The notes under the pieces were generated by a model. The model was given only the letters and a program-made list of their open reading frames with translations. It was not told the origin of the DNA and searched no databases. DNA of 64,000 bases. It comes from an uncultured Spirochaetota bacterium (GTDB lineage: Bacteria; Spirochaetota; Spirochaetia; SZUA-6; Fen-1364). The stretch's first letter is position 1; every line of letters begins with the position of its first letter. A program made the position numbers and the translations under genes. The DNA lies in NCBI GenBank assembly GCA_963820525.1, contig CAWGAA010000001.1, forward strand, positions 2,176,001 through 2,240,000. Direction: 5' to 3'. This document shows positions 1 to 17,860 of this stretch, piece after piece.

Positions 1-784
1 GGGAGAGCTCGACTATCCTGATGGCCCGCACCGACTTGCCGTAACCGCGGCAACCGTCCTGGGCAAACCTCACAATGCCCTGCGGGGTCACGATAACCCT
101 TCCTCCCGGCCGCGCTATCGAGGAATCCCCCTGGACAATGGGATTTCGCGGGTGGGAAACCCACGGCCCCGGGAGGCTTTCGGCATAGTAGAGCCGAAGC
201 TCGTCGGACTTTCCGGCCTGCACGCTGCTGAACATCCACCACAGGCCGTCGTAACAGAACAGGGAGGTGTCGGCGAACTCACCCTCCAGAAGGTCGGCGA
301 CATGCCGCCAGTCCCTCGGGAAGGCCTGTGCGCTGTAGAGGCGGATTCTGCCTGCCGCGATGCTCTCAGGGACGAGGTAGTGCCGTCCCTCCGCCGAGAA
401 GACATAGGGATAGGAGAGATGGTACGGCTCGGCCAGCACTATTCCCCCATAGTTCCACCGCAAACCGTCGGGGCTCCAGGACATCCCGATCTCTCCCTTT
501 CGGGAGAGTGAGTTCAACACCTCGTAGAACATGTACCATGTGCCGGCGTACCGGACAATGAATGGATCCGCCACGAACCGCGCGGGCACGTCGCGCACGT
601 GGGTCCGGGTGATGACGGGATTGGAGGCCCGCGCATCCGGCGAAAGGCTGTTCGGCGCGTGTCCCGAATAGATTCCGATGGCATACTCCTGCATCGTATC
701 GAAGCTGAGCCGATGCCTGCGCAGGAATAGGAAGCCCGCCACCGCGACGACGGCGATGGCGAGGACGATAAGGGCGTATTTCAT
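1..784 (-). CDS. Membrane-anchored five-bladed beta-propeller protein, GINT1 N-terminal (glucosamine inositolphosphorylceramide transferase-like)/GH43-like; 3' end runs off the window
   Basis: Not in the ORF track. Translated manually from ATG at 784: MKYALIVLAIAVVAVAGFLFLRR..NPVIT..FVADPFIV..WYMFYEV..GEIG..HLSYPYVF..YLVPES..PWVSHPRNPIV..ARPGGRV..RFAQD..YG, open to position 1. Confidence 0.75.
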   Translation of the reverse strand, partial: MKYALIVLAIAVVAVAGFLFLRRHRLSFDTMQEYAIGIYSGHAPNSLSPDARASNPVITRTHVRDVPARFVADPFIVRYAGTWYMFYEVLNSLSRKGEIGMSWSPDGLRWNYGGIVLAEPYHLSYPYVFSAEGRHYLVPESIAAGRIRLYSAQAFPRDWRHVADLLEGEFADTSLFCYDGLWWMFSSVQAGKSDELRLYYAESLPGPWVSHPRNPIVQGDSSIARPGGRVIVTPQGIVRFAQDGCRGYGKSVRAIRIVELS

Positions 785-801: not shown

Positions 802-1953
802 TCAGGCGCTGCGTCTCTCCGCGGCCGACCGCGCTTTCTCCGCGCTCTTTTCCGAGAGCTCCCTGTACATCCGCTCGTGCGCCTGCACGAAGTTCCTGAA
901 ATGGAAACGCTCCTCGACGATCTGCCTGCCCCGCTCCCCCATCAATCGGGCTTTTACCGGGTCGCCGAGAATGGAGATGAGGGCCCCGGCGAGCTTGTTC
1001 GGCTGGAAGGGGGGAACGAGCAGGCCGGTGCGGCCGTCTTCCACCACCTCGGAGATTCCACCCACGTCGGATGCAACCACGGGAAGCCCTGAAGCCATTG
1101 CCTCGACGATCGCAACGCTGAGCCCTTCGGTGCGGGAGGGAAGGACGAAGAGGTCCATCCGGGCAAGCTCGTCGAAAACCTCTTTCCGGTAGCCCGCGAA
1201 CTCCACGGCGTCCGAGAGGCCGATCTTTCGGGCGTACCCCTGCAGACGTCCGGCAAGGGGGCCGTCTCCGACAACGAGAAGGCGCGCCCGGGGGAAGCTC
1301 TCCCGAACCCGCTTCATGGCATCCAGGAGATCAACGTGCCGCTTCTCCTCGCTCAAGCGCGCCACGACGCCGATGACGGGAGCGCCGGGATCCCTTTGCT
1401 CTCGCGATTTGCCCGTCGACTTGGCCCCGCCGAAGGCGGGATAGATGATCCGGTAGGTATCCAGGTTTCTCGCGCCCACCCAATCGCGGCGCACCGCGTC
1501 CGCCACGAACACGCGACAGTCGGCCTTATCGCTCACCCAGTTGTTGAGCGGTTTGAGGAAAGCATCCCGGAATCTTCGCAACCTGCTGGGAGCCTGATTG
1601 CTCGTCGTGAGCTCGCAGGAGATGACCGCCGGCACGCCCGCGCGCCGGGCGGCGATTCCGCCGTAGATGTTGGTGTTCAGGCAGTAGGTCTGGACGATAT
1701 CCGGCGCGAGCCTGCCGAACAGGCTCGCGAGCTTCCCGATGAGGGCGGGGTTCTGCCAGCCCTCGGTATCCAGGTAGTACATGGGTATGTCGAGGCTGTC
1801 GAACTGATCGCTGATCTCGGCGGAGCGGTGCCCGTAGATGCAGACGCTCATGGCGAACCGGCTTCTGTCGATGGTGCGCGCCAGCGTGAGAAGATTGTCG
1901 TGGATCCCGTGAAACAGCCGCACGTCCTTCCAGACGTGCAGAACCTTGATCAT
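802..1953 (-). CDS. Glycosyltransferase family 4 (GT-B)
   Basis: Motifs ARLSEEKRH, FVLPSRTEGLSVAIVEAMASGLPVVASDVGG (EX7E). Confidence 0.92.
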   Translation of the reverse strand: MIKVLHVWKDVRLFHGIHDNLLTLARTIDRSRFAMSVCIYGHRSAEISDQFDSLDIPMYYLDTEGWQNPALIGKLASLFGRLAPDIVQTYCLNTNIYGGIAARRAGVPAVISCELTTSNQAPSRLRRFRDAFLKPLNNWVSDKADCRVFVADAVRRDWVGARNLDTYRIIYPAFGGAKSTGKSREQRDPGAPVIGVVARLSEEKRHVDLLDAMKRVRESFPRARLLVVGDGPLAGRLQGYARKIGLSDAVEFAGYRKEVFDELARMDLFVLPSRTEGLSVAIVEAMASGLPVVASDVGGISEVVEDGRTGLLVPPFQPNKLAGALISILGDPVKARLMGERGRQIVEERFHFRNFVQAHERMYRELSEKSAEKARSAAERRSA

Positions 1954-1966
1954 GATCTCGCCTCCG

Positions 1967-2944
1967 TTATTTCGTGCCGAGCCAGCGCGCCGCGTCCTTC
2001 GCGCTGTAGGAGATGATGAGATCGGCCCCGGCGCGCTTGAAGGCCGTCAACGCCTCCAGGGTGATCTCCCTTTCGTCGATGCGTCCCAGGGAGGCCGCCG
2101 CCTTGATCATCGCGTACTCGCCGCTCACGTTGTACACCGCGAGGGGAACGCCGAACGTCCGCTTGGCCCGGGAAACGATGTCGAGATAGAACATGGCGGG
2201 CTTCACCATGACGATGTCGGCCCCTTCCTCGATGTCGAGTGAGATCTCGCGCATCGCCTCCTCCGCGTTGCCGTAGTCCATCTGGTGGGACTTCTTGTCG
2301 CCGAAGCTCACCGCGGATTCGGTTCCATGCTTGAAGAACGGATCGTAGAGCTTGGAGGCGAACTTGGCCGAATAGCCCATCACCGCCGTCTCTGTGAAGC
2401 CGTTCTCGTCCAGGATCGACCTGATGGCCTTCACCTGGCCGTCGAGCATGGCGGCGGGGGCCACGATGTCGGAACCGGCCCGCGCGTGCGAAAGGGCGAC
2501 CTTCCCGAGCAGCTCCACGCTCTTGTCGTTTAGCAGATAGCCGTTGGCAAGGATGCCGCAGTGCCCATGCGGCGTGTATTCGCAGAGGCAGACGTCGGTG
2601 ACAACGACGATCCCCGGCACCTTCTCCCGGATCGTCTCCACGGCCTTCTGCACGATGCCGCCGGGGTCATAGCTTTCGCTCGCCATCTCGTCGCGCTTCT
2701 CGGGAATCCCGAAGAGCAGGACCGAGGGAATGCCCAGGTCCCGGATCTCCTTCACCTCGTCGGCGAGCCGGTCGATGGACAGGTGGTAGTTTCCGGGCAT
2801 CGAGTCGATCTCCTCTTTGACGCCGTATCCGTGGACGACGAACAGGGGGGAGATGAAATCGCGGGGGGCGAGCGACGTCTCGCGGACCATCTCGCGAATC
2901 GCGGGCGTCCGCCGCAGCCTTCTCATGCGCGTGACGGGGAACAT
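1967..2944 (-). CDS. hemB: Porphobilinogen synthase (ALA dehydratase) homologue with divergent substrate-binding motifs
   Basis: Start reassigned to MFPVTRMRRLRR (AAGGAG RBS). Zn motif DVCLCEYTPHGHCG, Schiff-base lysines in YSAKF and MVKPA, YNVSGEYAMIK. Confidence 0.93.
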   Translation of the reverse strand: MFPVTRMRRLRRTPAIREMVRETSLAPRDFISPLFVVHGYGVKEEIDSMPGNYHLSIDRLADEVKEIRDLGIPSVLLFGIPEKRDEMASESYDPGGIVQKAVETIREKVPGIVVVTDVCLCEYTPHGHCGILANGYLLNDKSVELLGKVALSHARAGSDIVAPAAMLDGQVKAIRSILDENGFTETAVMGYSAKFASKLYDPFFKHGTESAVSFGDKKSHQMDYGNAEEAMREISLDIEEGADIVMVKPAMFYLDIVSRAKRTFGVPLAVYNVSGEYAMIKAAASLGRIDEREITLEALTAFKRAGADLIISYSAKDAARWLGTK

Positions 2945-2961: not shown

Positions 2962-4572
2962 TCAGGCGCTCTTCGCGCCGGTGCGTGTGATATGGAAGGG
3001 AAGGATCTTGCCGCTTCGCGTCGGAATCGGGTAGTCCCGCTTTATGCGCAGGGTCCGCGCCTGCCCCCACATCTCGGGGCCCGACTGGGTCCACGATTCA
3101 GGGCTGACGGTGGCGGTCTTGAGGAATCGGATGAAGCTCTTTGCGATCTCCTCCTCGTCCACCTCACCGACCCGCGGGCTTACCAGGAGCTTCAGCCGTG
3201 TGAGGCCGCGCGCGTCCTCCTCTTCCAGCAGCTGGTAGTCGGTGCTCTGGCCGCCGTACTTCCGGGGAAGCTCGCGCTCCACGATCCTGATGAAATCGGT
3301 GTCGACGAACGTGACGCCTTCCCCGGTGAGCTTCTCGTAGCTCCTGATATCCGAGATGTGCGTATCGAAGCCGAGCCGGCCGAAGGGGCAGGAGCACTCC
3401 CCGCTCCACAGCTCGCCGTAATCCCCCATGCCGACGTTGAGCAGGATCTTGGGCGCCTCGTAGAGCAGGGAGGTGAAGAGGAAGGAATCCACCTCCGTGT
3501 CGCTGTGCTCCACCCGGAGGCGGTGCGGGATGATCGCCGTGGTGTCCTTGAGGATGTGACAGTGGTCGCTCGAGGGGTAGGGGCTGTCGCATCCCGCCGC
3601 GATCACCCCCGCTTCAGAGATCCCATAGATGGGCACCGCGATCGCCCCGGCGGCCTCTATCTCGGCCTTCTTCTGCTGGGTGAGCGGCTCCCCCGTTACC
3701 AGGAAGCGCGTGCCGTTGATCCTGAGGCCGTTCTCGGCCGCGGCCATGCAGACCCGCACGGCGGAGCTGGCAAAGGTGTAGATGACGCAGCTGGGGTTTT
3801 CCTCCAGCGCGCGGGAAGCCCACAGTGCGATATCGTACGCGTCGTTGAGCCCCACGAACTCGGGCCGCGCGAGGGGCACGCCGCTCAACCTGCTCATCAG
3901 GAAGATGTAGCTCACCCCCAGCCTCTTCTCCCAATTCACCTTCATGTGGCTCTTCTCCACCTGGGAGAACCACTTGCGGGGAGGGTTTCCGATGTGGGCG
4001 AAGCGCAGGGAGGAATTGATCCCCGGCGCGCCGGGGAAGACGGGAAACCAGTTGGCGATGGGAGCCGTGAGGGCGCCGTGGACATTGAGGATGAACGCGT
4101 CATAGAGAGAGCGTTGGGTGAGATAGTCGAAGTCGATGCGGACCCGGGTCCCCGCGCTGCGGGTGGCGCCGCTTCCCACCTCATAGGCCGCGGAGATGAA
4201 GGGGTTGTCGAACGCCTTCTCTTCGAGGCGGAAGCGCAGGCCGTCCCGCACGACCTCGAATTTCCCCTTGAACTCGTCCACGGTGTAGTACACCCCGTCC
4301 TTTCTCAGGGTCTCGAGGGCTCCCTCGATTCCCGCGTGCTCCACCCAATGGGAAATTTCGGTCATGCCGATCTTCTTGGCGGCGAGGAGGGGCAGGTAAG
4401 GACTTTTCGGATAGCCGAAAACTCCCTTCTCCATCAGCCTCAGGAAGTTCTCCTGGCGGCGGGCGATCCGGTCCGTGAACGCCGCCCGCGCCTGCTCCAG
4501 GGCCTGCTCCGGCGTGGTTCGATCCCTCAAATACTTCATGAGGCCGAAAACGAATCTCGAGTACTTGCGCAT
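2962..4572 (-). CDS. PaaK/GH3-like ANL-superfamily adenylate-forming ligase (divergent)
   Basis: P-loop-like GSGATRSAGT, TGEPLT, YGISEAG, GDYG, C-terminal TRSGKI; strong GGAGG RBS. Confidence 0.7.
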   Translation of the reverse strand: MRKYSRFVFGLMKYLRDRTTPEQALEQARAAFTDRIARRQENFLRLMEKGVFGYPKSPYLPLLAAKKIGMTEISHWVEHAGIEGALETLRKDGVYYTVDEFKGKFEVVRDGLRFRLEEKAFDNPFISAAYEVGSGATRSAGTRVRIDFDYLTQRSLYDAFILNVHGALTAPIANWFPVFPGAPGINSSLRFAHIGNPPRKWFSQVEKSHMKVNWEKRLGVSYIFLMSRLSGVPLARPEFVGLNDAYDIALWASRALEENPSCVIYTFASSAVRVCMAAAENGLRINGTRFLVTGEPLTQQKKAEIEAAGAIAVPIYGISEAGVIAAGCDSPYPSSDHCHILKDTTAIIPHRLRVEHSDTEVDSFLFTSLLYEAPKILLNVGMGDYGELWSGECSCPFGRLGFDTHISDIRSYEKLTGEGVTFVDTDFIRIVERELPRKYGGQSTDYQLLEEEDARGLTRLKLLVSPRVGEVDEEEIAKSFIRFLKTATVSPESWTQSGPEMWGQARTLRIKRDYPIPTRSGKILPFHITRTGAKSA

Positions 4573-4639: not shown

Positions 4640-5845
4640 CTAGGATCCGAAACGGATGGCGTTGGTGAGCTCGCGGACCTTCTCGATCGTGTTGTGCATG
4701 ATGCGGTTCACGATCGACTTGGTGAGGGACTCCACCATCCCCTTGGCCTCGTCGGGCAGGGCGCTGCCGGTGGCGAAGGATGCGAAGCCCTCCTGGCGGA
4801 CGTTCTCCGCCATGTCCTTCAGGGAAAGGATCACGGGGGCCAGGTCCGCGGCGTCGAGCTTCTTCCAGACGTCCTTCACCCTTTCGCCGATCATCCCCGC
4901 CGCCTTTTCCGCCTCCCTCTCCCGGATCGCCCTGCTCTCTTCCACCACGGCCTTCAGGTCGTCGATGTTGTAGAGGTGCACGCCCGGGATCTCTTTCACC
5001 CCCGGGTCTATCGTGCGGGGCACCGAGATGTCGATTATCATGACGGGCTTGCCGCCCAGCGAATCCGCGATGTCGCTCTTTGAAATCACGTAGCCCGGGG
5101 AGGCGATCGAGCTGATCACGATGTCGGTCTTGGGGATGTACTCCGCCGCCTCGTACAGCATGATGGGGGTCCCCTTGATGCTCTCCGCCAGGCGGACGGC
5201 GCGCTCGAAGGTGCGGTTGGCGACGAACACCTGCTTCACGCCGTTGTCCATGAGGTTTCTCACGGTGAGCTCCGCCATCTCTCCGGCGCCCAGGATCAGT
5301 GCCGTCTTTTCCGCGATCTCTCCCAGCGCCCGCTTCGAGAGGGCGACGGCGGCGTAGCTCACCGAGACGTTGGCGCGCCCGATATCGGTGGAAGAGCGGA
5401 CCTTCTTCACGAGGGCGAATGCCTGGGGGAAGAGGCGCTTGAAAACGGGCCCGACGACTCCTGCTTCCAGCGCGATCCGGTAGGCGTCCTTCACCTGCCC
5501 GAACACCTGGGGCTCCCCCACGATCATCGAATCGATGCCCGCCGCCACCTTGCAGAGGTGCTCCACCGCTTCCTCGTTGGTATGGACGTAGAGCGTATCG
5601 TCAATGCACTCCTTCACGCCGTGGAAATCGCAGAGAAAGGAGGCGAGGGCCGAGGGTTCCGCCCCGTCCAGGACGGCGTACAGCTCGACCCTGTTGCAGG
5701 TGGACAGGATCACGCACTCCGCCACCCCCTGCTGCTCCCTGAGGGCGGAGAGCGCCCGGGGGAGCGCCTCATCCTCGAAGGCGAACCTCTCGCGCAGGTC
5801 CACCGCCGCAGTTTTGCTATTCATTCCCAGTACGGATACGATCAT
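4640..5845 (-). CDS. hemA: Glutamyl-tRNA reductase
   Basis: Start reassigned to MIVSVLGMNSKTA. Catalytic STCNRVE, GIDSMIVGEPQVFGQVK, NADPH motif GAGEMA, VANRT, DISVPR, YNIDDL. Confidence 0.93.
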   Translation of the reverse strand: MIVSVLGMNSKTAAVDLRERFAFEDEALPRALSALREQQGVAECVILSTCNRVELYAVLDGAEPSALASFLCDFHGVKECIDDTLYVHTNEEAVEHLCKVAAGIDSMIVGEPQVFGQVKDAYRIALEAGVVGPVFKRLFPQAFALVKKVRSSTDIGRANVSVSYAAVALSKRALGEIAEKTALILGAGEMAELTVRNLMDNGVKQVFVANRTFERAVRLAESIKGTPIMLYEAAEYIPKTDIVISSIASPGYVISKSDIADSLGGKPVMIIDISVPRTIDPGVKEIPGVHLYNIDDLKAVVEESRAIREREAEKAAGMIGERVKDVWKKLDAADLAPVILSLKDMAENVRQEGFASFATGSALPDEAKGMVESLTKSIVNRIMHNTIEKVRELTNAIRFGS

Positions 5846-8060
5846 GCAGTGCCTCTCTTCGCTCGCCGCTGTCATCGGAGCCGGCCATGGCCAATTCCCT
5901 CCAGAAGCGCGCGACGTCGCGCGGGAGGGCGTTCCAGTACAGCCCCGTGTACCTTTCACGAAGGTAGAAAAGAAAATCCCGGTACCACGTGTGCGGATAT
6001 TCGTCGATTTGCCGTCTCTCCCCGTTCAACAGCATGTAATCGGGGTGGGTATTGAGCAGAGCCATTCCCCCTTTTTCGGCAACCCAGTCCAGCTTCTCCC
6101 GCCAGACCCTGGCATCGTGGTGTTGAAGCACCACGAAGAGCGTGCTGTCCTGCGGCAGGGTGTAGGGCAGCTCGACGTATCCCGAGCTGCCGTTCGCCAC
6201 CCACAGGGGGAAGATCGTTCCGATCCCGTCGGGCTGGGGCTCGAAGGGGTCCGTGTCGAACGTGGAGGCGTCATACTCGATCGCCAGGTCCTTCAGCCAC
6301 TCGAGATTGTGCTGCATGGCGGCGGAGCGGAACCCGACGGCGCCCCACTCCCGGAGATACGCGTTGATCCGCGCGGCCCGGGAGGTGAAAATCCGGCGTG
6401 ACTGGTACAGCTTCCCATCATGCGACAGGTCGTGCACGCCGATCTCGAAGCCCTGAGCCGTCAGCTCGGTGCGCACCCGGGGATCGTCTTCATAGCGTTC
6501 GGGAACGAAGTTGAAGGATGAAACGAATCCGAGCTCCTTCTCCATGGCCGCGACATGCGCGCAGCGCTCCACGCCCCGAAGACCCTCCACGTCGTGCGTG
6601 AGAACGAGCGCGAACTTCTTGCCGTCCGGCCACCCCTTCCAGTGGAGCGGCCGGGATTGGGATCGAGGGTCGATGGGCCACACGATGTCGACATTGCGCG
6701 CGACCCGGCGGGCAAACATGCGGCGAACCGCGATCTGCGCGCTTCGGGGGATGAGGGGCTTCATAAAATAGTAGAATCGGCGCGCCAGCTTCCGCCCGCT
6801 GGATGTGGCGCCTGATTCCCGCTTTTCCAGAAGCCAGTTGTACGCCGTGAGCAGGTTCTCCGACACGATCTCCCAGGCCAGCTCGCGCTCCACCCTGGCA
6901 CATCCCCGCTCACCCATGGTTGAGCGGCACGCGGGATCGTCCATGAGCCTGGCCACGGCCTCCGCGTACTCTTCGACATCATTGGGCTTCACATACAGGG
7001 CGGCATCCCGCGCCGTGAAGCGCGTCTCCTTCAGGTCGAAGCTGACGATCGGCTTGGAGTACATCATGTACTCCATGACCTTGATCCAGGTGGAATGATC
7101 GTTGAGGGGGTTCGAGGGGTTCGGGTCCAGACAGATATCGGCCGCGGCGAGATAGTGAAGGAGCTCCTGCCGTGGAATGAGGCCGGTGAAACGCACCGAC
7201 TCCTCGAGGCGGAGGTCCTTGACCAGCCCCTTCATGTCCTCCAGCACGTCCCCCTGGCCAATGGCGATGCACTGGAAATCCTCCCTGCCCAGCCCGTAGC
7301 GGAGGTGGTGCAGAGCGTGGAGCATGTAGTCCAGCCCGTCCTGCGGGCCCATGGTGCCGATGTACACAAGGAGCTTCCTGCCGCCCATCTGCGGGCCGGG
7401 CTCGCGGGAATCGCGCTGGAACTCGAATCGGGCAGGGCCGTTTCGAACGATGAAGATCTTCTCGGGGCCGATCCCCCCGCGTTCCATCTCGATGGCCCGG
7501 TAGCTCTCGTTGGTGGCGATCACGAGATCCGAGTGGCGGATGACGAGCGCTTCGATGCCATGGAGAATCCTGTAGATGAAGTTGCGGCGCACCCGGTAGC
7601 GGGAGAGGTAGAGCTCGGGCTCCAGATCGTGATGATCGAATATCACCTTCTTGCCCAGGAGCCTATAGCCGAGGGAGAGGAGGCACAGGATGTTGGGGGG
7701 ATTCGATGAATGGATGACCTGGAACCCGTCGCGCACGGCCACCATGGGGAAGATGAACAGGCACACCAGGGCGAAATAGAAGTACTCCACGATGTAGCCG
7801 AACGCGGAGAGGGCCCGATAGAAGAGCACCCCCAGCCGGGAGGTGCTTCGCGTGCTCTTCTTGAACAGGTTGATCATGGGCATTGTATAGACGGTGATGC
7901 CCCGAACGACTTCCCTTCCCAGGTTCCCGTGGGGGCTCAAGGCAAGGACGCTCACCTTGTACCCGTTGTCGGCGAGCTTGAACGCCTCCTTGCTCACCCG
8001 CGGGTCCGCGAGGAACGGCTTGTCCACGAACATCAGGACTTTTCGCGAACTCTTTTTCAT
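5817..8060 (-). CDS. GT4 glycosyltransferase fused to a C-terminal polysaccharide deacetylase-like (NodB/CE4-like) domain
   Basis: N-terminal DPRVSKEA, FDHHDLEPE, IKVMEYM (GT4); C-terminal VLTHDVE, EIGVHDLSHDG, GFRS, YDAS, ELPYTLPQD, NTHPDY. Confidence 0.85.
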   Translation of the reverse strand: MKKSSRKVLMFVDKPFLADPRVSKEAFKLADNGYKVSVLALSPHGNLGREVVRGITVYTMPMINLFKKSTRSTSRLGVLFYRALSAFGYIVEYFYFALVCLFIFPMVAVRDGFQVIHSSNPPNILCLLSLGYRLLGKKVIFDHHDLEPELYLSRYRVRRNFIYRILHGIEALVIRHSDLVIATNESYRAIEMERGGIGPEKIFIVRNGPARFEFQRDSREPGPQMGGRKLLVYIGTMGPQDGLDYMLHALHHLRYGLGREDFQCIAIGQGDVLEDMKGLVKDLRLEESVRFTGLIPRQELLHYLAAADICLDPNPSNPLNDHSTWIKVMEYMMYSKPIVSFDLKETRFTARDAALYVKPNDVEEYAEAVARLMDDPACRSTMGERGCARVERELAWEIVSENLLTAYNWLLEKRESGATSSGRKLARRFYYFMKPLIPRSAQIAVRRMFARRVARNVDIVWPIDPRSQSRPLHWKGWPDGKKFALVLTHDVEGLRGVERCAHVAAMEKELGFVSSFNFVPERYEDDPRVRTELTAQGFEIGVHDLSHDGKLYQSRRIFTSRAARINAYLREWGAVGFRSAAMQHNLEWLKDLAIEYDASTFDTDPFEPQPDGIGTIFPLWVANGSSGYVELPYTLPQDSTLFVVLQHHDARVWREKLDWVAEKGGMALLNTHPDYMLLNGERRQIDEYPHTWYRDFLFYLRERYTGLYWNALPRDVARFWRELAMAGSDDSGERREALHDRIRTGNE

Positions 8061-15818: not shown

Positions 15819-17860
15819 CGGGGCACCCCCCCGGGCTCCCCGACGGGCGATTCGGCGCAGATGAATCGGGTGCCGAGCGCGCAGGGGAGCCCACCCCGCC
15901 GCGAGATCACCAGCTTTCGGGTTTCGCGCTTGCGCCCATAGCGCTCCGAGACCCAGCCCTCCGTCACTGCCAGCTTCCAATCGCCGAGGTCGGCAAAGGA
16001 GATGAAAAGAACCGCCCCCGCGCGGGAGAGCTTCACCAATGAGGGGCCGAGACTGTCGAGCCGGCAGTCGGGATGAACGGTGAGAAAGATCTCGAAAAGA
16101 TGCTCTCCCTCTCCGGCAAAGGAATCCTCCACGGCGAGGGTGTTGGAGCCCTTGTCCAAGAGGAACTCCCTCTTGTGCACGACCGGCCGCGGGAGGCGCC
16201 GGTAGCCGTAGTGCTCAGCGGCGAGGCGGTCTGCGGTGGGTGAGCTTTTCCAGAGCGTCACGAGCGGGCGCGCGTCGTTTTCCATGGCGAAGAGAATCGA
16301 CTCGGAGAACCGGTTTATCTCCACGCCGTCCACGCGGGCCGTGTTGTGGAACGCGGTGGAGCGGAAGAGGTTCCTCCACCGCGGCGAGCCGGAGTAGATG
16401 AAGGTTCCGCTGTCTGACAGGAAGGCCGTATTCTTCCAGAAAAGCTCGAAGCTCAATGCGTCGCTGTGGGCGTGCCCGGCGTGGCGGCCGTTCATCCCGC
16501 CGTTGGCGCAGACGACGAAGACCTTCACGTCCTGGCCGCTGTGAAGGGCGTAGTACCCCGCATCGGGGAATGCCCGTGAAGAGCTGCCGGGGGGGGCGTG
16601 CGGCAGGGCGAGTGCCCGGTTCAGCCCGGCAGAGCCGAAGAGCCACACGAGGTCTTCCCCCGTCGCGAGGGCGGAGTGAGGAAGCTCCTTCCTGCCGCAG
16701 AACAGCGCAGCAGGGGCCAGGAGGTGCCTGTGATCGCGGTAGTCGGTCGGCCCCAGGGGCGTGACGCGCCCGTCATCCGCGTCGCGCGCAAGCGAGCCGG
16801 TTCCATCGGGGCGCAGATACCCTTCGAGGAACGCGGTCATTGCGTCCAGCGCGGCGACCATCCGCTTTGGGAGCGGGATTCCATTGGAGCTGCACAGAAC
16901 GCCGCAGCCCAGGAGCATCTCGAGCACCAGCCGGTGGTAGGCCGGGGCAAGCTCCCAGTGCGCCCCGTCGGGGAGCACCTGGACTTCCAGCTCGCTTTCC
17001 AGCTCCGAGAGCGCGAAGGAAAGCCATGCCTCGGGCTCGCGGCCGTCGAGCATCACCCCGAGGTAGACGAGGCCGACCAGGTCCGCCATGTAATGGTTGC
17101 CGTTCATGCGCTGGAGCCTGCCGTCCACGACCCTTCTGTCGAACTCGAGGTTGCCGCGGATGAATCGCCCATGATCGAGAAGGGAGGCGGCCAGCGCGCG
17201 CTTTCTGTCCTCGTCGAACAGGGGCGAATCTCTGAAGAAGAAATACGCCCAGAGCAGGTTGATCGCGCGGATGGCCACCTCCATGGGACAATGCCAGTTC
17301 ACGCCATAAAGGAAGGGATTCTTTTCCAGCCAATCGGAGAGCTGGTCGAGAAACTCACGGGTGTAGCGCTCGCTTCCCGTGAACAGGTACCCCTTCCCCA
17401 GCGAGATGAAGTGGTAGAAGCGCGAGAGCTCCCAGGGGACCTTGATGTCGGAACCGTCCGAAAGGTCGATCTCGGGGATGTCCTCGAAGTAGTGCCGGGG
17501 CCACGCCTTCCCGCTCTTGAAGTCCCTGTGCCAGTCGATCGTGTCGCCCAGGAAGACCTCCCCGGAGCCCAGGAGGTCGAACACATGGGCAACGGCTTTG
17601 TCGGCCTCCTCGACGGCGCGGTTCGGCGAATCGTTCCAGCGGTCGAGGAAGAGGGAAAGGAAATGCGCCCGATTGTCCCGCATGTCGCGGGCGCAGAAGA
17701 ACTCGCGGTCTTCCCTGATGCGCGCGGAGGCGGGGCGGGCCTGCGGGCGCAGCCGCATCCTCTGGGCGGCGGAAGCCCACCTGCGCTCAAGGCGCGAAAA
17801 CGCCACAGCGGCGAGCACCGGTAGCGGCGTCTGGAGAACCCGGGCGATGATCTTTTTCAT
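15815..17860 (-). CDS. Heparinase II/III family protein
   Basis: Start MKKIIARV; DIKVPWELSR, MEVAIR, NHYMAD, GHAHSDALSFEL, DSGTFIY, RSTAFHNT. Confidence 0.88.
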   Translation of the reverse strand: MKKIIARVLQTPLPVLAAVAFSRLERRWASAAQRMRLRPQARPASARIREDREFFCARDMRDNRAHFLSLFLDRWNDSPNRAVEEADKAVAHVFDLLGSGEVFLGDTIDWHRDFKSGKAWPRHYFEDIPEIDLSDGSDIKVPWELSRFYHFISLGKGYLFTGSERYTREFLDQLSDWLEKNPFLYGVNWHCPMEVAIRAINLLWAYFFFRDSPLFDEDRKRALAASLLDHGRFIRGNLEFDRRVVDGRLQRMNGNHYMADLVGLVYLGVMLDGREPEAWLSFALSELESELEVQVLPDGAHWELAPAYHRLVLEMLLGCGVLCSSNGIPLPKRMVAALDAMTAFLEGYLRPDGTGSLARDADDGRVTPLGPTDYRDHRHLLAPAALFCGRKELPHSALATGEDLVWLFGSAGLNRALALPHAPPGSSSRAFPDAGYYALHSGQDVKVFVVCANGGMNGRHAGHAHSDALSFELFWKNTAFLSDSGTFIYSGSPRWRNLFRSTAFHNTARVDGVEINRFSESILFAMENDARPLVTLWKSSPTADRLAAEHYGYRRLPRPVVHKREFLLDKGSNTLAVEDSFAGEGEHLFEIFLTVHPDCRLDSLGPSLVKLSRAGAVLFISFADLGDWKLAVTEGWVSERYGRKRETRKLVISRRGGLPCALGTRFICAESPVGEPGGVPR

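Follow-up and report, generated by a model that had tools for sequence, protein, structure and literature searches.

Porphobilinogen synthase (PBGS; also ALAD or HemB) belongs to tetrapyrrole synthesis, where it catalyses the second or third step, and to our knowledge has no other described role. Use of its substrate 5-aminolevulinate (ALA) outside that route is known from the C5N pathway, in which an acyl-CoA ligase activates ALA for non-tetrapyrrole products. In mycothiol and bacillithiol synthesis, a GT4 glycosyltransferase adds GlcNAc, a deacetylase frees the amine and an ATP-dependent ligase acylates it. Here we describe a PBGS paralog, HemB', encoded in a stretch of 64,000 nucleotides (the window) from an uncultured Spirochaetota bacterium ([GenBank:CAWGAA010000001.1], positions 2,176,001 to 2,240,000; assembly GCA_963820525.1). 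HemB' belongs to a minus-strand operon with the order GT4-deacetylase fusion, glutamyl-tRNA reductase (GluTR, HemA), a conserved protein that we call X, HemB', GT4 glycosyltransferase, GINT1_N-like protein, UbiD-like protein, UbiX and glutamate-1-semialdehyde aminomutase (GSAM, HemL). This cassette combines the three enzyme types of the mycothiol and bacillithiol routes, with a GT4, a CE4-fold deacetylase and, immediately downstream, an adenylate-forming ligase; its ALA, as in the C5N pathway, would go outside tetrapyrrole synthesis. Unlike in those pathways, ALA is made by the C5 route and not by ALA synthase, none of the enzymes is orthologous to theirs, and the PBGS paralog and the UbiD-like protein have no counterpart in either of them.

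We consider it likely that HemB' is a specialised PBGS paralog in a self-contained, ALA-based pathway that does not lead to tetrapyrroles and that feeds a glycan substituent. The decisive evidence is the gene context together with the absence of the remaining tetrapyrrole pathway. The window's genome (5.05 Mb in 4 contigs, 96.67% complete) carries a single ALAD gene and a single GluTR gene, both in the HemB' operon. Profile searches of this genome found no hemC (PF01379), hemD (PF02602) or SUMT (TIGR01469), and no hemE either, the best open reading frame (ORF) of the URO-D family reaching 54 bits against the hemE model (cut-off 303). The same searches were positive in 10-13 of 14 control genomes. 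Outside the operon, no genes for heme or vitamin B12 formation were found in this bacterium. The genome contains eight URO-D-family ORFs (contigs C1 and C3; L010-L017), the best with 141.7 bits; as candidates for hemE they were rejected, the best being MtaA/CmuA-like. The best two resemble MtaA/CmuA-type methyltransferases, yet they score below the cut-offs of those models.

The pairing of HemB' with X is conserved far beyond this genome. A scan of one genome per species with the X alignment as query gave 106 X-encoding places. The 80 that were retained are mainly from Acidobacteriota, and the others from Fibrobacterota/Chitinispirillia, Spirochaetota, Verrucomicrobiota, Aminicenantes, Dormibacterota and one metagenome-assembled genome (MAG) labelled as Dongiaceae. 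Of these 80 loci, 76 contain HemB', in 75 of them directly after X. Among the exceptions, L092 is frameshifted and three loci (L019, L072, L086) stop at a contig edge. In L054 (10001-20186, a Chitinispirillia MAG), which has the order HemA-HemL-X, tblastn did not find HemB' within 8.5 kb downstream of X; it is the sole locus of the 80 that has room for HemB' and lacks it. In L092 (1-4100, a Spirochaetota MAG), HemA, X and HemB' are each split into two or three frames, and its copies are the closest to those of the window (57-77% identity per piece); the frame breaks may reflect either assembly error or decay. The neighbours seen most often are a short UbiD-like protein (70 loci) and GluTR (42), followed by a CE4-like domain (22), GT4 (21), a GINT1_N-like protein (15), UbiX (12) and HemL (9). 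Wzx, Wzy, GT2, FemAB-like proteins, hexapeptide acyltransferases, FAD oxidoreductases and B12-radical-SAM proteins are rarer. Within the window's own phylum, X occurs in 5 of 151 sampled genomes, including the window's, and one of the other four is close. Since X is so rare there, the cassette may have been gained horizontally by a lineage otherwise lacking the pathway, as this distribution suggests.

HemB' itself (1967-2944, minus strand, 325 aa), assigned by Pfam and NCBIfam matches and by motif alignment, is a full-length member of its family. Against Pfam ALAD (PF00490; cut-off 24.6) it scores 457.4 bits over profile positions 2-317 of 317, and against NCBIfam PRK09283 porphobilinogen synthase (NF006762; cut-off 297) it scores 463.4 bits. 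It shares family and length with canonical PBGS (EC 4.2.1.24; E. coli HemB, Chlorobium 1w1z, Pyrobaculum 5lzl, Pseudomonas 1b4k), aligns as a whole protein with 1w1z (E 6e-105), and has identical Schiff-base lysines, Zn cysteine triad, serine/tyrosine pair and lid glutamine. The lysines are K194 and K248 (E. coli K195/K247); the cysteines are Cys119, Cys121 and Cys129 in the motif DVCLCEYTPHGHCG (residues 117-130), where the Zn-type pattern DxCxCxYx3GHCG is present; the others are Ser274, Tyr313 and Gln221. In PBGS, the Ser/Tyr pair is assigned to the P-side carboxylate. Because all catalytic residues are kept, Schiff-base chemistry is plausible for HemB'. A role as a Zn-sparing paralog was also considered and rejected, the Cys triad being retained.

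HemB' is unlike canonical PBGS in its rewritten lid, in forming a separate clade and in adjoining a PaaK-like ligase rather than hemC or hemD, to neither of which it is linked. A sequence-only reading of the window had picked out three altered motifs, and the translation bears them out: APAAMLDG at residues 162-169, LYDPFFKHGTES at 199-210 (a lid stretch that includes LYDPFFK) and the second lid motif GDKKSHQ at 215-221. The serine of the canonical APS motif, replaced here by alanine, lines the active site. When HemB' was aligned with E. coli K-12 HemB ([GenBank:NC_000913]) and 13 canonical copies of other genomes, A164 corresponded to S165 of E. coli, D201 to G202, K205 to R205, K217 to R216, H220 to Y219 and Q221 to Q220, and HemB' had one extra residue, F203, ahead of K205. 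In E. coli numbering the changes are S165A, F200L, G202D, an added Phe, R205K, A208T, R216K, Y219H and A269V. A HMMER alignment with the Chlorobium structure 1w1z places the same one-residue insertion in HemB' and a lysine beneath the lid arginine. The sequence-only reading had left it open whether the lid arginine was replaced by Phe, or by Lys with an insertion; both alignments favour the lysine, and the Phe alternative is dropped.

These differences are conserved across a large group. The best 119 database relatives of HemB' are 65-77% identical to it, nearly all of them carry the variant motifs, and their sources are labelled as MAGs of Chitinispirillales, Latescibacterota, Aminicenantes and Sumerlaeota. 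Residues were counted in 191 distinct variant sequences (database relatives and genome copies) and in 14 canonical ones. Among the variants, A164 occurs in 188, D201 in 178, K205 in 182, K217 in 191 and H220 in 188, that is, in 93-100%. At the equivalent sites the canonical group reads S in 14, G in 13, R in 14, R in 14 and Y in 14. The lid arginine pair, present at both sites in all 14 canonical sequences, is therefore replaced by lysines as a rule in HemB'. In contrast, C119, C121, C129, K194, K248, S274, Y313 and Q221 are invariant in all 191, in line with the earlier claim that the catalytic lysines and Zn cysteines are kept; the same set is invariant in the canonical group, except for C121 (12 of 14). 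Ten positions separate the two groups, when a discriminating position is defined as at least 90% in one group versus at least 85% in the other, and 8 of the 10 fall within residues 199-220, the active-site lid.

In a quick IQ-TREE phylogeny with groups set by motif, which coincides with adjacency to X, 13 canonical and 89 variant copies are split by a branch with an SH-aLRT support of 100. The 13 copies away from X carry the canonical motifs (APSDMMDGRV, GP-FRE/DA and GDRR/K.YQM), and the 89 copies adjoining X carry the variant ones. Pfam ALAD scores from the same genomes are higher for the canonical copies (462-508 bits, leaving out five that match in pieces) than for the variant ones (424-457 bits). 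Judged from these alignments, HemB' is a conserved second type of PBGS, a clade distinct from canonical HemB. Two observations concern the canonical copies themselves. In five Acidobacteriaceae genomes (G003, G004, G006, G007, G012), the Pfam ALAD match of the canonical HemB comes in two pieces, with a break at about profile position 132/133 inside a single open frame of 374-404 aa, which points to an insertion inside the barrel. The canonical ALAD proteins of G013 and G016 (L099, L100) read CDTCLDEYTSHGHCG, with Asp in place of the second Cys of the metal motif, which makes their metal site a mixed Cys/Asp one.

The distribution of HemB' and canonical HemB was compared in 25 other genomes carrying X. 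A second, canonical ALAD is found in 21 of them, and exactly these 21 have hemC, so none of the hemC-positive genomes has lost canonical HemB. This retention fits a HemB' that is unable to replace HemB. In the remaining four (G002, G019, G022, G025), HemB' is the sole ALAD and hemC is missing; hemD and SUMT are also missing from G002, G019 and G025. In 18 of the 25, there are at least two GluTR genes, as a rule one next to hemC and another next to HemB'. The view of the sequence-only reading that HemB' is no ordinary housekeeping enzyme agrees with both patterns, its co-occurrence with canonical HemB and its presence where hemC, hemD and SUMT are missing.

The clade-specific positions may provide some clues regarding the change in function. 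The lid is described in PMC535902 as belonging to the Km-determining substrate site of PBGS. A docking study lists human R209 and R221, which correspond to the lid arginines R205 and R216 of E. coli, among the residues contacting ALA or porphobilinogen (PMC9631992). In the product, according to PMC7725820, the acetate arm and free amino group stem from the A-side molecule, and the propionate arm and ring nitrogen from the P-side one. Given this role of the lid site, the contacts made by R209/R221 and the A-side origin of the acetate arm, we infer that the lid changes in HemB' bear on the holding of the A-side carboxylate or of the acetate arm of the product. The earlier observation of rewired substrate-pocket motifs is upheld, 8 of the 10 clade-specific positions lying in the lid, a part of the A-side site.

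Protein X (2962-4572, minus strand) is a conserved protein of 536 aa, and its stop codon is separated from the HemB' start by 17 nt. Searches of X against Pfam and NCBIfam, AMP-binding and CapK models included, gave no family at E <= 0.001. Its 981 database relatives include a best 119 that are 63-81% identical, all of them named 'hypothetical' or nameless, and the closest cluster in the protein Atlas bears the automatic name 'Coenzyme F390 synthetase'. When PDB sequences were searched with a profile, there was one weak match, ClxA/'phenylacetate-CoA ligase' 9s3l (E 1.7e-4). A structure model built from a 30-sequence alignment (pLDDT 83.3, pTM 0.87) was compared by Foldseek, which assigned it a two-domain PaaK-family (ANL) adenylate-forming fold. 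The ranking was BT_0428, PaaK1/PaaK2, NatL2, AjiA1, ClxA, 2-hydroxyisobutyryl-CoA ligase and McbA; the top three structures (4r1m, 2y27, 2y4o) had a probability of 1.00, E values of 6.6e-14 to 2.9e-12 and TM scores (query) of 0.39-0.51. A S-G-K motif near the C-terminus is invariant among the relatives, and we take it to be equivalent to the ANL A10 lysine. X is like the PaaK family (PaaK1/2, BT_0428, NatL2, AjiA1, ClxA) in its predicted fold (Foldseek E 6.6e-14 to 1.6e-9), and unlike it in its low identity to solved structures (13-16%), in about 100 additional helical residues at the N-terminus and in a conserved Cys/His cluster (C328, C338, H339, C395). On the strength of the model, X is predicted to be a divergent PaaK-type adenylate-forming enzyme. 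X was also considered as a HemC/HemD substitute in a novel tetrapyrrole route, and this was rejected because of the lack of SUMT and hemE in the genome and because of the adenylate-forming fold.

More remote paralogs resembling X, which score about 505-561 bits with its profile, are found in the window's phylum as tandem pairs together with an NMT1/THI5-like or TAXI solute-binding protein. Three such pairs stand in a row in G159 (L128, G159:C25:38001-57000) and two in G105 (L129, G105:C1:3168001-3187000), and a third paralog locus is L130 (G145:C53:11001-29000). ABC or TRAP transporter genes adjoin the tandem pairs, and HemB' is absent at all three loci. Such an arrangement would fit activation of small carboxylic acids by this family.

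The rest of the operon may supply the substrate and the later steps. GluTR (4640-5959 as a listed ORF, minus strand; Pfam, NCBIfam) is the sole copy in the genome. Since the Pfam match begins only at residue 44, the true start is probably the Met at about 5845 and not 5959. As listed, the ORF shares 143 nt with the 3' end of the glycosyltransferase gene upstream. The three last genes of the operon lie outside the window, on the same strand as HemB', in L009 (C1:2158001-2176000 of the same genome). HemL (GSAM), about 2 kb before the window start (L009 14822-16117), scores 611 bits (cut-off 527). UbiX (L009, about 16089-16690) scores 243 bits (cut-off 188) and is a clear member of its family. 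The UbiD-like protein (L009 16715-17764; 349 aa), three genes downstream of HemB', matches PF01977 at 190 bits and PF20695 at 46.6 bits. It is like UbiD enzymes in matching solved ones, including HudA/PA0254 (E 1e-36), and in having UbiX in its operon; it is unlike HudA in that the C-terminal domain is missing, and the match to HudA is no more specific than those to other UbiD enzymes. A UbiD enzyme acting on a pyrrole acid is known, HudA/PA0254 being reported as a prFMN-dependent pyrrole-2-carboxylate decarboxylase (PMC7976604).

Gene content and residue conservation are observed here, and from them we infer each step of the following pathway. GluTR and GSAM would make ALA from Glu-tRNA. HemB' would condense ALA to a porphobilinogen-type monopyrrole through its unchanged P-side site, the two Schiff-base lysines and Zn, and its remodelled lid would treat the A-side carboxylate (the acetate arm) differently; the A-side ALA may already carry a derivatised carboxyl, or else the product's acetate arm may be handed on instead of being released. 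PaaK-type relatives of X adenylate aryl-acetic and aryl-carboxylic acids. With ATP, X could activate a carboxyl of the pyrrole (or of ALA), and could then join the activated acid, probably through an amide bond, to an amino sugar that the GT4 and the CE4-fold deacetylase have exposed. The short UbiD-like enzyme, with prenylated FMN (prFMN) made by UbiX, might add or remove a ring carboxyl. The pathway would end in a cell-surface glycan with a pyrrole-bearing substituent. Two forms of this pathway can be envisaged. In the first, porphobilinogen is formed from two ALA before X adenylates its aryl-acetate-like arm, which suits PaaK chemistry. In the second, X acts earlier, derivatising ALA at the carboxyl, and HemB' takes the derivative at the A side, which would explain both the lid changes and the apparent inability of HemB' to replace HemB. 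The first is somewhat more likely.

More tentatively, and short of an even chance in our view, the same cassette could represent a widespread non-tetrapyrrole branch of the C5/aminolevulinate pathway, in which GluTR, GSAM and a PBGS paralog lead to a monopyrrole (porphobilinogen or a close analogue), which is carboxylated or decarboxylated by UbiD-like/UbiX proteins and joined by a new PaaK-type ligase to a deacetylated amino sugar, to give pyrrole-decorated surface glycans. That wider claim includes as hosts the Acidobacteriota, Fibrobacterota, Spirochaetota, Verrucomicrobiota and others.

Several observations weigh against a pathway of this kind. First, the lysine at the second lid site is an ordinary change when taken alone. 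The altered GDR motif, GDKKSHQ, is present as the sequence-only reading had it, and its lysine is also seen in solved PBGS enzymes of Chlorobium (GDKSTYQ) and Pseudomonas (GNKATYQ). Moreover, since the lid arginine pair is changed only to lysine, so that a positive charge is preserved at both sites, and since Gln221 is kept, HemB' may still bind ALA in the ordinary way and form porphobilinogen normally. Second, the match of the UbiD-like protein to TIGR00148 extends over positions 1-315 of 438 and, at 202.7 bits, falls below the cut-off of 244.85; the protein keeps the N-terminal and prFMN-binding domains and lacks the C-terminal one, and the His of the 'sHRG' stretch of E. coli UbiD is replaced by Pro. 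Third, UbiX, HemL and the deacetylase stand next to the X-HemB' pair in a minority of loci only, and in three Acidobacteriaceae genomes that carry the pair, GluTR is present once, beside hemC. Fourth, the completeness of the other hemC-negative genomes, all of them MAGs, is not stated, and canonical hemA, hemB and hemC are often neighbours, so that one missing contig could remove all three. Finally, no ALAD other than HemB' was detected in G022, although hemD and SUMT are present; this gap is probably due to assembly incompleteness, or else HemB' supplies porphobilinogen there.

Among other explanations, the one that survives best, although we regard it as unlikely, is the strongest form of the sequence-only reading: that the A-side partner is not derived from ALA at all, being another amino-ketone or a keto-sugar, and that the product is a heterocycle other than porphobilinogen. 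The concentration of clade-specific positions in the A-side lid, with S165 replaced by Ala, Gly202 by Asp and one residue inserted (E. coli numbering), would suit such a change, as would the retention of canonical HemB in every hemC-positive genome and the enzymes of keto- and amino-sugar metabolism in the locus (GFO/IDH/MocA, DegT and UDP-sugar dehydrogenase). However, no enzyme supplying another amino-ketone is conserved with the pair: the ALA-making GluTR and GSAM are the only substrate suppliers conserved in the cassette, and the lid keeps its charge and Gln221. Of the earlier proposal, a non-housekeeping enzyme with a changed product, the first part holds, HemB' belonging to a separate and conserved paralog clade, and the second is a conjecture. 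Taken as a whole, the interpretation given by that reading is partly supported.

Less probable still is a back-up isozyme that escapes metal limitation, feedback or an inhibitor and releases free porphobilinogen into the normal pathway. Two ALAD genes per genome are the common state in our dataset, and zinc-related hemB paralogs are reportedly known. However, the Cys3 Zn motif of HemB' is the same as that of the canonical copies and HemB' is therefore not a metal-switch paralog; it is also maintained, together with GluTR and GSAM, where hemC, hemD and SUMT are missing, and in glycan loci it is fixed beside a PaaK-like ligase and a UbiD-like protein, neither of which a back-up would need. The least probable explanation, an ordinary housekeeping PBGS whose lid differences are lineage drift and which feeds normal tetrapyrrole synthesis, can point to the full-length ALAD match above the NCBIfam cut-off, the intact catalytic residues, the single ALAD of the window's genome and the case of G022, yet we find it very improbable given that hemC, hemD, SUMT and hemE are missing from the window's genome, that canonical HemB is kept as well in 21 of 25 HemB' genomes, and that drift is contradicted by variant residues 93-100% conserved across several phyla and separated with a support of 100 from the canonical copies of the same genomes.

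A specialised HemB' feeding a glycan substituent is in keeping with its surroundings, since the operon sits inside a Wzx/Wzy polysaccharide locus that spans 1-41 kb of the window. The first gene of the operon (5817-8060, minus strand, 747 aa) encodes an N-terminal GT4 fused to a C-terminal CE4/NodB-fold deacetylase-like domain of about 300 aa (5820-6803, boundaries taken from BLAST ranges). The model of this domain (pLDDT 84.6) has 3rxz as its best Foldseek match (E 2.7e-10), followed by ArnD, WbmS, chitin deacetylases and NDST1; in related loci the domain is found alone or fused to GT4 in either order. Directly downstream of HemB' is a GT4 glycosyltransferase (802-1953, minus strand; Pfam, NCBIfam), which scores 115 bits against the BshA model, below the cut-off of 274. 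Next to it is the GINT1_N-like protein (318 aa; Pfam), which starts at 784 on the minus strand and continues past the left end of the window (1-784 inside it). Upstream of the operon, the minus strand at 8068-41316 encodes Wzy, Wzx, a Bac_transf initiating transferase and Poly_export/SLBB proteins, a GFO/IDH/MocA oxidoreductase, a DegT aminotransferase, two UDP-sugar dehydrogenases and a UDP-GlcNAc 2-epimerase, and further an AsnB-like amidotransferase, a heparinase II/III-like protein and a beta-helix protein. This gene set resembles the route to 2,3-diamino uronic acids; no hexapeptide N-acetyltransferase was found among the ORFs scanned at 8068-41316.

In the full-text literature, subscription journals not being covered, our searches brought up neither a PBGS paralog in linkage with PaaK-like or UbiD genes nor glycans bearing ALA-derived pyrrole substituents. 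Annotation pipelines name HemB' genes 'porphobilinogen synthase', and because of this label metabolic reconstructions will wrongly credit heme-auxotrophic genomes like that of the window with the start of a heme pathway. If the wider non-tetrapyrrole branch is real, HemB' would be the first enzyme of the PBGS family with a changed A-side specificity or a changed hand-off of its product. A conserved paralog that has its own ALA supply and is fixed beside X and a UbiD-type enzyme would give the family a second biological role. It would also point to a new pyrrole-containing component of the cell surface in soil and gut lineages that are abundant, Acidobacteriota and Fibrobacterota accounting for the majority of the 80 loci.

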